A program made the position numbers and the translations under genes. From Oscillospiraceae bacterium (GTDB lineage Bacteria > Bacteroidota > Bacteroidia > Bacteroidales > WCHB1-69), in the NCBI GenBank assembly GCA_963620035.1, contig CAVEXN010000009.1, forward strand, positions 5,332 to 69,331: a DNA stretch of 64,000 nt, given 5' to 3'. The notes under the pieces are model-generated. The model saw only the letters and a program-made list of their open reading frames with translations, was not told the origin of the DNA and searched no databases. Shown piece after piece: positions 25,307-62,945 of this stretch; position 1 is the stretch's first letter, and the number at the start of each line of letters is the position of its first letter.

Positions 25307-25397
25307 CAAAAAAGTTGTCTATAGCATAAAACAACAATAAAATAGAAAATGAAACTGCTGTTGGACTTTTGACCGGCTTATTTTTTTTTGGGGGGGG

Positions 25398-25471
25398 TGG
25401 GTCGTATTGGAGTTGAACCAATGACCTCTGCCGTGTGAAAGCAGCGCTCTAAACCACTGAGCTAACGACCC
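25398..25471 (-). tRNA. tRNA-Val (anticodon CAC)
   Basis: Hand-folded cloverleaf: acceptor GGGTCGT/ACGACCC, D arm GCTC/GAGC, anticodon stem CTGCT/GGCAG with loop TTCACAC, T arm ATTGG/CCAAT with TTCAACT loop. CCA not encoded. Confidence 0.9.
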
Positions 25472-25804: not shown

Positions 25805-25877
25805 CGGGGTGTAGCGCAGTTGGTAGCGCGCTACGTTCGGGACGTAGAGGCCGGAAGTTCGAGTCTTCTCACCCCGA
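25805..25877 (+). tRNA. tRNA-Pro (anticodon CGG)
   Basis: Acceptor CGGGGTG/CACCCCG, D arm GCGC/GCGC, anticodon stem CTACG/CGTAG with loop TTCGGGA, T arm GGAAG/CTTCT with TTCGAGT. CCA encoded at 25878-25880. Confidence 0.92.
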
Positions 25878-25885
25878 CCAAAAAA

Positions 25886-29125: not shown

Positions 29126-29209
29126 GCCGAAGTGGTGGAATGGTAGACACGAGGGACTTAAAATCCCTTGCTCATTGCGAGCGTGTGGGTTCAAGTCCCA
29201 CCTTCGGTA
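29126..29209 (+). tRNA. tRNA-Leu (anticodon TAA), type II with long variable arm
   Basis: Acceptor GCCGAAG/CTTCGGT, anticodon stem AGGGA/TCCCT with loop CTTAAAA, variable arm GCTCattgCGAGC, T arm GTGGG/CCCAC. CCA encoded at 29210-29212. Confidence 0.9.
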
Positions 29210-29242
29210 CCAATAAATGGCAATTTCTAAAAATGAAAAAGC

Positions 29243-34423: not shown

Positions 34424-35080
34424 TCAGTCGCGGATGCGCAGCCCGAGTTCTTGCAGGAAAGGCTTGAGAACAGGGTTCTGTTCTTCGAGATTCTTGAACT
34501 TGTCTTCGGAACTGATGATGATTTTCTTTTTCTCAAGACGTGTGTTCGTCTCTATGACAATGTCGATGACTTTGATGGAGAAATGATTCCGCCAATAATC
34601 CAGCAGCGTCGGTTTCCTGGATTCATATTCTTCTTTCTGGAAATCGTTCAGCACTTCGATGTGGACGATGCCGTCCTTGAAATCGGGCATTCTGTCTTTC
34701 ATGGAATGGTAGATCATCGGGAGGCGCGAAAAGATGTCGTTGAACATCTTGTTCCAGCAGTCGGCGAATGTTTCGGGTTCTGTTGCGGGTCGGCTCTCTT
34801 TATCGGATGTGTGGTTCTCTGTGTTGCCGGTTGGCGCCGGCAGTGACTGCACAGAAGATGCCGCAAGGGGTGTGGTCACTTCACCGTCCATCACGCTGCG
34901 GATAGAGGGAGTCTGCCGTATAGGCGGAACTCCCGGGAACTTGAATTCCTGGTTTGATATTCTCGGCTTGTCGGAAAAGGCTGCGGCTGCCGCTGTCTCA
35001 CCGGTGGTGGAGGCCGTTCCACCCTCTGGGTTATTTACGCTCCTGCGATTGCCTGGCTTTTTTGAACAGGTAGTTTGCGT
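34424..35080 (-). CDS. dnaX: dnaX tau-specific C-terminal half, open in the +1 frame relative to the dnaX N-terminal ORF (stop-to-stop coordinates)
   Basis: The frame is stop-free from 35080 and overlaps the end of the N-terminal ORF by 50 nt. It has an Ala/Thr/Pro/Ser/Gly-rich linker, then a conserved-looking C-terminal domain (CWNKMF...LLDYWRNHF...EDKFKNLEEQNPVLKPFLQELGLRI) like full-length Bacteroidales DnaX. First internal start is the GTG at 34894. Confidence 0.7.
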   Translation of the reverse strand, partial: TQTTCSKKPGNRRSVNNPEGGTASTTGETAAAAAFSDKPRISNQEFKFPGVPPIRQTPSIRSVMDGEVTTPLAASSVQSLPAPTGNTENHTSDKESRPATEPETFADCWNKMFNDIFSRLPMIYHSMKDRMPDFKDGIVHIEVLNDFQKEEYESRKPTLLDYWRNHFSIKVIDIVIETNTRLEKKKIIISSEDKFKNLEEQNPVLKPFLQELGLRIRD

Positions 35081-36158
35081 TTATCTGCATCAGGCAGAGT
35101 TCAACTGACAGTCGCTTGTTGTTGGACATCTTGTAGTTGAAGTCGCACTGGTTGGCCAGTTCCATGGCTCTGAGCAGCAGTGCCCGGTCTGCCGTCTGAG
35201 CCTGCCGCACCAGCCGGTCGCGGATGTTGTCGGAGGTTTCCAGCAGTCTGGATGTGGCCGGGTCGCGGGCAATCATGAGATTCCGGAAATGGGAGGCCAG
35301 TCCCGAGATGAAGTTCTGGGCGTCGAAGCCGCGGGCCAGGATGTCGTCAAAGAGCAGCAGCGCCTGCGCAACCTCTTCGCTGAACAGGTGGTCGGTCACT
35401 TTGAAGAAATTGTCCACGTCCAGTACGTTGAGGTTCTCGATGGCGTCTGTGTATGTGATTCTTTTGCCTGAAAAACTCACCAGGCGGTCGAAGATGGACA
35501 GGGCGTCGCGGAGTGCGCCGTCTGCCTTGTCGGCAATGACGCGCAAGGCTTCCTCCTCGGCCTCAACCCCCTCTTGCGCAGCCACATACTGGAGATGCCT
35601 GATGATGTCACGCTCTTCTATACGTTTGAAATCATATACTTGGCATCTTGAAAGGATGGTCGGGATTATCTTGTGCTTTTCGGTGGTCGCCATGATGAAT
35701 TTGGCGTATGCCGGCGGTTCCTCGAGGGTTTTGAGAAATGCGTTGAAAGCCGCCCCCGAGAGCATGTGAACCTCGTCGATGATGTAAACCTTGTATTTGG
35801 CGCCTTGCGGCGGAATCTGAACCTGCTCCACCAACGAACGGATGTCTTCGACGGAGTTGTTGGAGGCCGCGTCGAGCTCGAACACGTTGAATGACGCCGA
35901 ATTGTTGAAAGACTGGCACGATTCACATACGTTGCAGGGCTCGAAAGAGTCGGTGAGATTCCGGCAGTTGAGCGCCTTGGCGAAAATGCGTGCGCAGGTG
36001 GTCTTGCCGACGCCACGCGGACCGCAGAACAGGAAAGCCTGTGCCACCTGACCGGTGCGGATCGCATTCTTCAATGTTGAGGTTATGGAATCCTGCCCTA
36101 CGACGGAGTTGAATGTCGTTGGCCGGTATTTGCGGGCAGATACAATAAAATTATCCAT
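35031..36158 (-). CDS. dnaX: DNA polymerase III subunit gamma/tau, N-terminal (gamma-like) reading frame
   Basis: Walker A GPRGVGKTT, Walker B IIDEVHML, SRC motif ILSRCQ, MDNFIVSARKYRPTTF N-terminus. The frame ends 9 codons after the A6G tract. Confidence 0.9.
   Translation of the reverse strand: MDNFIVSARKYRPTTFNSVVGQDSITSTLKNAIRTGQVAQAFLFCGPRGVGKTTCARIFAKALNCRNLTDSFEPCNVCESCQSFNNSASFNVFELDAASNNSVEDIRSLVEQVQIPPQGAKYKVYIIDEVHMLSGAAFNAFLKTLEEPPAYAKFIMATTEKHKIIPTILSRCQVYDFKRIEERDIIRHLQYVAAQEGVEAEEEALRVIADKADGALRDALSIFDRLVSFSGKRITYTDAIENLNVLDVDNFFKVTDHLFSEEVAQALLLFDDILARGFDAQNFISGLASHFRNLMIARDPATSRLLETSDNIRDRLVRQAQTADRALLLRAMELANQCDFNYKMSNNKRLSVELCLMQINANYLFKKARQSQERK
35057..35063 (-). promoter_or_regulatory. 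A6G tract (A-AAA-AAG) at the dnaX frame junction; candidate slippery/slippage site or indel-prone homopolymer
   Basis: Minus strand reads TTC AAA AAA GCC in the N-terminal frame and TCA AAA AAG CCA in the tau frame. Confidence 0.5.
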
Positions 36159-61340: not shown

Positions 61341-62945
61341 ATGCGTAAAAATTTCAAGATTCCTCACACTTTTACTATCGTGTTTGTCCTGATTGTTGTG
61401 TGTGCTGTGCTCACTTGGATTGTACCGGGCGGCGAGTTTGATAGGCAGACCGTTGTGGTGGATGGTCACGAAAAGAGTGTTGTTGTGGCAGATTCCTATC
61501 ATCATACCGACAATAACCCTCAGACCTGGCAGATATTCACCGCCCTCTTTAAAGGCTTCAACCGGACTTCTGACATTGTCGTGTTCATCTTGATGATTGG
61601 CGGCGCCTTTTGGGTGATGAACGAGACCAAGGCTATCAACAAGGGCATTTATTTCTTCTTAAGTAAAACAGAAAAGATACAGCAACTACCGTTCTTTCGG
61701 AAAGTCGGGGTGAACAATCTGCTCATAATTGCTATAATGTTGTTGTTCAGTATTTTCGGTTCAGTGTTCGGTATGAGCGAAGAGACGATTGCCTTTGTCG
61801 TGATATTCATACCGCTGGCAATATCTATGGGGTATGATTCCATAGTCGGGGTACTGATGTGCTATGTGGCTGCGCATGTCGGCTTTGCAGGCGCAATGCT
61901 CAATCCGTTCACCATAGGCATAGCCCAAGGACTCTCAGGATTGCCAGCATTCTCTGGAATAGGATACCGCTTTCTTTGCTGGGCAATCCTGACTCTCTCA
62001 GCTGTTGTTTTCACTCTGCTCTATGCCCGAAGAGTGAAGAAAAATCCCGAGAAGTCGGTGATGTACGAGTTGGACCAGTATTGGCGCGACCGCAGCGAGC
62101 GGGTCAGCGTTGACCAGTCCGTTGAGAAATCGACGCTCCCGGCGTATGTGGTCTATGGCATTGTTACTGCGGTATTGGTTTACTGCGCATTCGCACTGCC
62201 GGAGACGTCTTTGAAAGTGGGATCCGCTTCTCATCCGATTGTGCTGTTTCCCGTTCTGGCAGCGTGCTTTGTCGTGCTTGGCTTTTTCGCTGTACGCAAA
62301 TCGGTGCATCATTTTATTCTGGTGCTGCTCCTGTTTACGGTCCTTGTCTTGGTTGCTGGCGTGCTGGGTTATGGCTGGTATGTGATGGAAATTGCCGGGC
62401 TTTTCTTTGCGATGGGGCTGGCAGCCGGACTGGCATACGGTTTTCCACTCGACAAGGTGACCAGACTCTTTCTGGACGGATGCAAGGATATTCTGGTGGC
62501 GGCACTGGTTGTAGGCTTGGCCGGCGGGATCATTGTGATATTGGAAGACGGAAGGATCATCGATACTATTCTCTATGCCGTTTCTCAATGTTTTGGCGAT
62601 TCGGGCAGAATTGGCGCTACAGGTGTGATGTATGCGATGCAGAACCTGCTCAACCTCATCATCCCTTCAGGCTCCGCCAAGGCCGCACTGACGATACCTA
62701 TGATGGCCGAATGGTCGGACCTTATGGGTGTGTCTCGGCAGCTTACCGTTTTGGCGTTCCAGTTCGGCGACGGGTTTACGAATATGATTACCCCGACATC
62801 GGGCGTGCTTGTCGGTGTGCTGGGCGTGGCCAGAATCCCATATTCCACATGGTTCAAGTTTATTTGGCCTTTTATTGTGGCATTGATTATTGCGGGGTTC
62901 TTCTTGCTGCTGCCCCCATTGTTTATGTCGTTTGTGGGTTTTTAG
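61341..62945 (+). CDS. YfcC / DcuC-like anaerobic C4-dicarboxylate-carrier family transporter
   Basis: About 535 aa polytopic protein. N-terminus MRKNFKIPHTFTIVFVLIVVCAVLTWIVPGGEF is typical of the YfcC family. Confidence 0.75.
   Translation: MRKNFKIPHTFTIVFVLIVVCAVLTWIVPGGEFDRQTVVVDGHEKSVVVADSYHHTDNNPQTWQIFTALFKGFNRTSDIVVFILMIGGAFWVMNETKAINKGIYFFLSKTEKIQQLPFFRKVGVNNLLIIAIMLLFSIFGSVFGMSEETIAFVVIFIPLAISMGYDSIVGVLMCYVAAHVGFAGAMLNPFTIGIAQGLSGLPAFSGIGYRFLCWAILTLSAVVFTLLYARRVKKNPEKSVMYELDQYWRDRSERVSVDQSVEKSTLPAYVVYGIVTAVLVYCAFALPETSLKVGSASHPIVLFPVLAACFVVLGFFAVRKSVHHFILVLLLFTVLVLVAGVLGYGWYVMEIAGLFFAMGLAAGLAYGFPLDKVTRLFLDGCKDILVAALVVGLAGGIIVILEDGRIIDTILYAVSQCFGDSGRIGATGVMYAMQNLLNLIIPSGSAKAALTIPMMAEWSDLMGVSRQLTVLAFQFGDGFTNMITPTSGVLVGVLGVARIPYSTWFKFIWPFIVALIIAGFFLLLPPLFMSFVGF

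Follow-up and report, generated by a model that had tools for sequence, protein, structure and literature searches.

The window considered here is a stretch of 64,000 nucleotides (nt) from an Oscillospiraceae bacterium (contig CAVEXN010000009.1, positions 5,332 to 69,331), which the GTDB assigns to the Bacteroidales lineage WCHB1-69. Its minus strand carries dnaX, a textbook gene for recoding in bacteria, and here the coding sequence is divided over two overlapping reading frames (Table 1). Frame 0 encodes the clamp-loader part of the protein and ends with ...NANYLFKKARQSQERK* (last residues ...KKARQSQERK). The linker and the C-terminal domain that are specific for tau are located in the +1 frame, where the open reading frame (ORF) translates as TQTTCSKKPGNRRSVNNPEGG...LGLRIRD*. 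The third frame is closed by the TAA within cgTAAa (35037-35035, minus strand). From this layout and its conservation in relatives, it appears very probable that tau is produced by programmed ribosomal frameshifting to +1 within 35031-35057.

The two ORFs are parts of a single gene. The frame-0 protein matches positions 1-361 of the NCBIfam model NF011531 (DNA polymerase III subunit gamma/tau) with 682 bits and the model TIGR02397 (dnaX_nterm) with 438 bits, at a cut-off of 250. It also contains the Pfam domains DNA_pol3_delta2, DNAX_ATPase_lid and DNA_pol3_gamma3. The +1 ORF in turn matches positions 417-613 of the 614-position model NF011531 (E=1.5e-9) and aligns to the last 160 residues of P0149, an uninterrupted Bacteroidales DnaX of 563 amino acids (BLASTP, E=6e-12). 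Because these matches to NF011531 are collinear, the frame-0 and +1 ORFs represent one gene in two frames. The main traits of this layout had been described in an initial annotation and could be reproduced: the gamma-like product is the genomic default, with 375 amino acids up to the TAA at 35033-35031; the tau C-terminal region lies in the +1 ORF and tau is reachable only via recoding from frame 0 to +1; and both frames other than that of tau close within 10 codons of an A6G run (TAA 35033-35031 in frame 0, TAA 35037-35035 in the third frame). The joined length had been given as about 577 amino acids, and any junction inside the overlap indeed yields 577. The exact 375-amino-acid protein of the window was not on record in the database look-up, the nearest entry being P0001 with 94% identity.

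The same layout is found throughout the relatives of the window. The best 120 homologues of the fused 577-amino-acid query, drawn from NCBI, ENA, JGI and Logan sources, are proteins of 374-411 amino acids that share 79-94% identity with the query, cover 64-65% of it and display nearly identical C-termini, [AVL]RQSQER(K)*. In a second clade (L083, P0121-P0144), about 66% identical to the window, the proteins are 368-371 amino acids long and end with ...VRQS*. No fused protein of tau length occurs among the close database homologues (about 140 clusters at 90% identity), which all measure 368-411 amino acids. At the DNA level, the +1 type is represented by 15 sequenced junctions from the two clades, about 13 of them non-redundant, with the close-clade DNA fetched through exact-protein look-ups of relatives (ENA, JGI, NCBI and Logan samples). 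In all of these relatives, the +1 frame passes the frame-0 stop uninterrupted and runs for 202-304 codons to the conserved C-terminal domain. The tau-specific part is annotated in them as a separate downstream ORF of 107-291 amino acids, and fragments match the Pfam family DUF8439 (PF28557).

In total, over 140 protein clusters (90% identity) share the break, and so do over 20 contigs that were assembled independently in various studies and with various assemblers. The initial annotation had listed a one-base homopolymer error in the assembly among its explanations, and the break does adjoin a homopolymer in the window. However, a miscall in the window cannot account for the break, because all close homologues have the same two-frame layout in many independent assemblies, and some of these contigs carry no A-run at all. 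A recent inactivating mutation, which would make the gene a pseudogene, is contradicted by the purifying selection on both ORFs. Neither an assembly error nor a pseudogene can seriously be entertained. The break in dnaX was reproduced on the minus strand and is common to the relatives; judging from these assemblies, it is genuine and not an artefact.

The +1 ORF bears clear signs of being translated. In the relatives, the C-terminal domain read in the tau frame has nonsynonymous differences (pN) of 0.28-0.46 versus synonymous differences (pS) of 0.68-0.97. For a conserved motif in the linker, again read in the tau frame, pN amounts to 0.19-0.49 versus a pS of 0.6-0.96. The position of this motif bears on the question whether the gene could be truly split, with the 375-amino-acid protein as sole clamp-loader ATPase and a C-terminal part that is made from an internal start (e.g. 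GTG 34894) or not made at all. The separate downstream ORF that gene callers annotate in relatives would fit such a split, as would the presence of GTG 34894 in the window. However, the selected linker motif comes before any ATG, GTG or TTG: in the window, L162, L165 and L172, none of these occurs within 51-54 codons from the beginning of the tau frame, and in several relatives the first tau-frame ATG comes as late as codon 125 (L162), 159 (L172) or 209 of 230 (L175). None of the alignment columns holds a conserved start codon, and the starts chosen by the gene callers differ in almost every relative. Since there is no usable start upstream of the linker motif, ribosomes would have to enter the +1 frame from frame 0 of dnaX. 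Moreover, the +1 frame extends over the frame-0 stop in every case. Shuffles of the first 60 linker codons remain open in only 2-20% per lineage, a chance of 0.02-0.2 for each, and the linkers are highly diverged between lineages. In Escherichia coli, the C-terminus of tau is tethered to the clamp loader, and a detached tau C-terminus would lose this tether. The sequence comparison thus indicates that the +1 ORF is under purifying selection and is translated from upstream. A separately initiated C-terminal protein is unlikely because the selected motif precedes any start codon, and a true split as a whole is improbable, in line with the initial annotation, which had mildly disfavored it.

The consensus of the linker motif is F-x-[FY]-P-G-x-P-P-[IV]-[RK]-x-x-P-[ST]-I-[RK]. 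It is recognizable in both clades of the +1 type (L161-L185 aligned) within a linker that is otherwise variable, and it might be a partner-binding motif.

The junction itself is marked by a short conserved core. G(C/U)N AGG CAA UCG was found in all 15 sequenced junctions of the two clades, which are about 66% identical. The heptamer G(C/U)N_AGG_C lies inside the ORF overlap in 15/15 junctions and also within the 14-nt span set by L185; most clade members have it in the form GCG_AGG_C. Both the AGG and the overlapping +1 codon GGC (35053-35051), with which the tau-frame reading G-N-R begins, are invariant in the two clades. In the clade of the window the complete block is GCN AGG CAA TCG CAG GAG CGN (AAA) TAA, and the DNA of the second clade reads GTC AGG CAA TCG TGA G... 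In the relatives, the frame-0 stop follows 0-5 codons after the core. The narrowest limits are set by L185 and L182, which have a +1-frame TGA 14 nt and a +1-frame TAA 17 nt before the frame-0 stop, respectively; in these, the frame change is confined to (A)AA GUC AGG CAA UCG UGA.

The conservation of the block exceeds what its amino acids require. Among nine diverged clade members, the third base is invariant in just 22 of 203 amino-acid-invariant codons (10.8%), which means that synonymous sites are near saturation. The third bases of AGG, CAG and GAG are nevertheless invariant in these nine, and CAA and TCG each deviate in a single sequence, whereas 3 and 4 different bases occur at the third position of the flanking GCN and CGN codons, respectively. 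As the core third bases are fixed while their neighbors vary, this pattern points to a constraint on the block at the RNA level.

Table 1. Features of the dnaX locus in the window, sequences that precede the AGG in relatives, and poly-A loci in other Bacteroidota
Feature	Position	Strand	Remarks
dnaX frame-0 ORF	35031..36158	minus	ATG 36158, TAA 35033-35031; 375 amino acids, clamp-loader domains I-III
+1-frame ORF (tau-specific linker and C-terminal domain)	34424..35080	minus	open from TAA 35083-35081 to TGA 34426-34424
C-terminal domain of Bacteroidota DnaX, ETFADCWNKMF...LGLRIRD	34427..34774	minus	from family model, alignment and pN/pS
Conserved tau-frame linker motif DKPRISNQEFKFPGVPPIRQTPSIRS	34895..34972	minus	upstream of first possible start, GTG 34894
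Possible 3' stem-loop GGUGGA-ACGGCC-UCCACC	35006..35023	minus	7 nt after TAA; weakly supported
AAA TAA, last sense codon and frame-0 stop	35031..35036	minus	alternative shift site AAA UAA C (prfB/shifty-stop type)
Clade-specific extension CAG GAG CGT	35037..35045	minus	Shine-Dalgarno-like (AGGAG); near-invariant in the clade of the window, absent from the L083 clade
Universal core GCC AGG CAA TCG	35046..35057	minus	AGG 35054-35052; favored +1 shift site
A6G run	35057..35063	minus	A6 35063-35058 and G 35057; not conserved, probably relic of poly-A/KKK site
Sequence before AGG, window			ttc aaa aaa gcc
Sequence before AGG, L162			tat aaa aag gcg
Sequence before AGG, L163			tat aag aag gcg
Sequence before AGG, L169			aag ctg cga aat gcg
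Sequence before AGG, L172			aag cgt cag cgt gcg
Sequence before AGG, L177			atg cgg cac cgt gcg
Sequence before AGG, L001			caa gct gtg gct
Loci with dnaX broken on A10-A13			L017, L027-L030, L034, L038, L042, L043, L048, L051, L054, L055, L062, L064, L070, L075, L079, L093, L097, L104, L115, L116, L127, L129, L133, L141, L145, L147

This block is located 3-26 nt downstream of the A6G run, on which the initial annotation had placed a possible recoding event, either by slippage of tRNA-Lys on AAA AAA G or by stuttering of the RNA polymerase on A6. The run does sit inside the overlap (35063-35057), and runs of A10-A13 clearly fulfil this role in the dnaX of other Bacteroidota (PMC3711429). The phasing of the heptamer as A-AAA-AAG in the tau frame had been read correctly, but it is misleading: it would suit ribosomes already reading the tau frame, whereas those arriving in frame 0 read UUC AAA AAA GCC, and a tandem slip of the E. 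coli type would bring them to -1 and not to the tau frame. The alignment of orthologues that had been proposed as a check shows the break to be conserved, but neither the run nor its length. The longest A-run upstream of the AGG is 6 in the window and its 94% identical relative L161, 5 in L162, L165 and L176, and 2-3 in the others. Members of the clade with an identical two-frame layout thus have A5, AAGAAG or no run at all (Table 1). For comparison, the breaks in other Bacteroidota show A10-A13 and the shortest poly-A reported for a dnaX with two ORFs is A7 (PMC3711429). In L185 and L182, a +1-frame stop even separates the equivalent position from the core. Because A6 is limited to the window and one close relative, slippage on the run is excluded as the conserved mechanism, and as the source of tau it is very improbable. 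A transcriptional route is implausible since no homopolymer is available for it. At the position of the two Lys codons of the run, many other Bacteroidota possess a KKK/poly-A site with which these codons align, and the run is probably a decaying relic of such a site.

In the explanation preferred here, standard decoding would deliver the 375-amino-acid gamma-like subunit, with termination at TAA 35033-35031. A fraction of the ribosomes would shift to +1 within the short overlap and go on for about 200 codons, generating a 577-amino-acid tau with linker and C-terminal domain. The signal would be the non-homopolymer G(C/U)N AGG CAA UCG, complemented in the clade of the window by CAG GAG CG, with the frame-0 stop 0-5 codons further on. 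As to the exact codon, the balance tilts slightly towards the AGG core, where GCC_AGG_C (35057-35051) would be the favored site. By estimate, the larger part of the confidence in a +1 shift belongs to the core, a much smaller part to the frame-0 stop and the little that is left to another codon in the block. The ribosomal nature of the event, its codon and its efficiency are all deduced from comparing sequences.

Two variants can be envisaged at the core. In the A-site variant, the AGG would stay undecoded and the abundant Gly codon GGC would be read instead, for which the predicted junction is ...NYLFKKA|GNRRSVNNPEGGTASTTGETAAAAAFSDKPR (...LFKKA|GNRRSV). In the P-site variant, the tRNA-Arg would slip from AGG to GGC while keeping a G·U and a G-C pair, with ...KKAR|NRRSV as predicted junction. 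The conserved CAA UCG (CAG GAG CG) would serve as 3' context element in either case. Codon usage in the window (18,409 codons) puts AGG among the minor Arg codons, with 5.5 per 1000, and GGC first among those for Gly, with 35.7 per 1000. In yeast, CUU_AGG_C by itself is known to bring about +1 shifting of about 40%, and AGG_AGG shifts in E. coli upon over-expression of the mRNA (PMC5009743).

Several points weigh against a shift at the core. AGG is minor in the window, yet it is not rare. The peptidyl-tRNAs on GCC or GUC (Ala/Val) cannot re-pair in +1, which makes the site inefficient by E. coli rules. Tau is presumably essential, and hence a high or at least reliable shift efficiency would be needed. 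A pure AGG_C model also leaves the conserved CAG GAG CG extension and the nearby stop unexplained in the clade of the window. The substitutions in the block (TCA, CGC, CGA, CGG) look more synonymous in frame 0 than in +1, which fits with the block being translated in frame 0. In addition, the fold of the window junction is no better than that of shuffled sequences (z=-0.16). The linkers of uninterrupted relatives cannot be aligned and are of no help in placing the junction.

The alternative placement is a +1 shift at the frame-0 stop, as in prfB and other shifty stops. Here, the Shine-Dalgarno (SD)-like AGGAG, a 3-nt spacer CGU, AAA in the P-site and UAA C would act together, with ...ARQSQERK|NPEGG as the predicted junction and AGG-CAA-UCG-UGA-G as the arrangement in the L083 clade. 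The spacing of AGGAG-CGU-AAA-UAA-C equals that of the prfB site AGGGGG-UAU-CUU-UGA-C, and in L083 the spacing from the AGG is alike. The SD-like character is kept in variants (AGGUG in L175, GGGAG in L001), most base changes in the block are silent when read in frame 0, and the frame-0 stop is always found 0-5 codons from the core. The tau junctions expected from this model can be aligned well (...QERK|NPEG versus ...QER|KNPG), and a stem with compensatory changes begins 7-10 nt past the stop. The codon before the stop, however, varies (AAA, CAA, CGC, CGA, UGC, UCG, GCG), and for the most part these codons do not allow re-pairing in +1. Relative to the stop, the SD-like element is displaced by 3 nt in some subclades compared with others: its spacing to the pre-stop codon is 3 nt in the window, L162, L169, L176 and L175, but 0 nt in L165, L172, L177 and L001, and L083 has only the AGG of the element. 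The invariance of AGG CAA UCG is left unexplained in the clade of the window, where the core lies 21-24 nt before the stop, and the window sequence is devoid of significant structure. Furthermore, the ribosomes of Bacteroidia sequester their anti-SD and largely ignore SD sequences, and even an optimal prfB site shifts only about 7% in Flavobacterium johnsoniae (PMC10798248). A shift at the stop is consequently rated as rather unlikely, and the AGG core is retained as the favored site.

Support from RNA structure is modest. RNAalifold predicts two tiny helices at the junction (-4.7 kcal/mol), with covariation that is modest and possibly biased. One of them is the possible 3' stem-loop (Table 1), in which 3/4 pairs of the RNAalifold helix show compensatory changes. 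The other is the mini-hairpin CGC-AGGA-GCG of 3 bp (35037-35048, minus strand), which would expose an SD-like AGGA in its loop and is too weak to call. It is extended to 5 bp in L172 and L177, contains a compensatory G-C to A-U change in L001, and exceeded the shuffle and slide controls. Neither helix is present in the L083 clade. Rfam returned no match at E<=10 in the junction, the DnaX element (RF00382) included, and two unrelated sub-threshold matches outside of it.

The organization of the window resembles a type of dnaX that was already reported. Antonov et al. (2013; NAR 41:6514, PMC3711429) described 17 genes from 12 genera in which recoding is required for tau. At the DNA level all 17 need a -1 change and 12 contain A7-A10, where the authors suggested transcriptional realignment; this two-ORF set includes F. 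johnsoniae and Chlorobium. The reversed polarity, with the short product encoded in the genomic frame, was restated in the review of Atkins et al. (2016; PMC5009743). The initial annotation had put this polarity forward as the unusual point of the window, a claim that these publications anticipate. The similarities comprise a frame 0 that ends after domain III, a gamma-like default product, a frame change needed for tau, the same boundary between domain III and linker and, for some members, the same phylum. The published cases are, however, -1 and mostly A7-A10, whereas the window requires +1 and displays the AGG CAA UCG motif in place of a conserved homopolymer. With A6 in the window and A5 down to A2 in its relatives, the run also falls short of the poly-A type (about 7-10 or more).

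The classical dnaX systems share fewer traits with the window. The E. coli -1 frameshift (A_AAA_AAG, flanked by an SD on the 5' side and a stem-loop on the 3' side; Rfam RF00382) takes place in the same gene, likewise gives two products with a common N-terminus, and the window happens to hold A6G. The direction differs (+1 versus -1), tau is the recoded product in the window, and the heptamer is unconserved and in the wrong phase. It is absent in most clade members, and the -1 frame closes at 35037-35035. In Thermus thermophilus, transcriptional slippage on A9 also leads to two products from one gene by a frame change near the same boundary. There, a long A-run is needed and tau is the genomic-frame product, unlike in the relatives of the window, which lack the run.

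More instructive are the known +1 sites. The yeast sites CUU_AGG_C (Ty1/ABP140) and GCG_AGU_U (Ty3) have in common with the window the form NNN_AGG_C, a minor Arg codon in frame 0, an abundant GGC in +1 and a stop soon after. The Ala codon in the P-site is shared with Ty3, and the conserved 3' nucleotides could here act as a context stimulator. The differences are a bacterial ribosome, a P-site codon for Ala or Val (Leu in some) instead of CUU, and an AGG that is not demonstrably starved. The resemblance to Ty1 may serve as a lead for the mechanism. The prfB gene (RF2; SD, 3 nt, CUU UGA C) shows the same +1 direction, and the window has AGGAG 3 nt before AAA UAA C, with a stop after the candidate P-site codon. 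Unlike prfB, the window type has neither a conserved slippery P-site codon nor a fixed SD-to-stop spacing, and an autoregulatory logic is missing. In the literature search, no paper was found on a +1 or read-through dnaX. A conserved +1 site that does without a homopolymer and has a motif of its own looks to be undescribed so far.

To place the window among the Bacteroidota, genome and metagenome contigs were scanned with the N-terminal part of the protein. The matches listed are mostly distant Bacteroidota with at most 76% identity, which makes them useful for a census but not for the close clade. Among these matches, 152 Bacteroidota loci could be assessed, of which 117 have an uninterrupted dnaX of 525-682 amino acids. 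In 29/152, the gene is broken at the same boundary on A10-A13 (Table 1), with frame 0 ending at about 355-375 amino acids; the tau part follows in -1 in most of them but in +1 in four (L028, L030, L051, L115). The published poly-A type with two ORFs is thus far commoner than the 17 genes of 2013. Since 29 of the 152 listed loci break dnaX at this one boundary, making gamma by default and tau through recoding is, on the sequence comparison, a recurrent solution in the Bacteroidota.

A third large clade of uncultured Bacteroidales (L018, L032, L037; P0239-P0358) has a product of about 366 amino acids that mostly ends with ...NP or ...YP. In all three of its loci with DNA (L018:2787, L032:4101, L037:4098), frame 0 ends at an in-frame TAG (CCA TAG ATT GCA AGG), after which the same frame runs for 189-254 codons to the tau C-terminus. 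The rest of this clade probably ends at an in-frame TAG as well, and the residue in front of it is Pro in most cases. It is a candidate for programmed UAG read-through as the way of making tau.

Neighboring clades appear to use different recoding devices (poly-A, +1 site and in-frame UAG) at a single shared junction. This suggests that selection strongly favors a set ratio of gamma to tau and that the device is easily exchanged. In the literature found, the routes to two dnaX products are -1 frameshifting, transcriptional slippage and proteolysis. If the interpretation holds, a conserved +1 site without a slippery run or a conserved slippery P-site codon would be a fourth route. Such a site would serve an essential gene in a large and abundant uncultured lineage of gut and rumen, and it would offer a natural test case for the stimulation of +1 shifts on ribosomes that are unable to use SD/anti-SD pairing. 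It is tentatively proposed that AGG-CAA-UCG and its extension could constitute a new and efficient +1 signal, homopolymer-free and SD-independent, by means of which the SD-blind ribosomes of Bacteroidia would make a replisome subunit that is essential. This signal would be one of at least three interchangeable dnaX recoding devices (poly-A slippage, +1 site, UAG read-through) at the gamma/tau boundary in Bacteroidota. In a practical sense, completeness or pseudogene calls for these metagenome-assembled genomes could be misled by the split annotation of dnaX.

A few minor observations concern the window and single relatives. The window contains three ordinary tRNA genes, Val-CAC (25396-25471, minus), Pro-CGG (25805-25880, plus) and Leu-TAA (29126-29212, plus), none of which is relevant to the decoding of AGG or Lys codons. 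Outside the junction, AGGCAATCG occurs in the window only once, at 61794 on the minus strand and antisense to the ORF there, and the further regular-expression matches to AGGCAATCG in L165 and L169 do not lie in frame. L175 has the core motif twice, 26 nt apart (L175:2084-2120), as AGGCAATCG before the stop and as AGGCAAGCG directly after TAA CC; the second copy lies in another frame and, as a single case, is possibly due to chance. An Rfam hit to the Pseudomonas small RNA P10 inside the dnaX coding sequence (35234-35290, minus) reaches 22 bits, against a gathering threshold of 37 (E=0.0045), and is almost certainly a chance match. Finally, the dnaX of L148 (354 amino acids; ...gagggaaaa TAA atc) fits none of the three types. 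It has A4 before the stop, followed by a 121-codon ORF in the -1 frame, and could be an assembly error or another variant.

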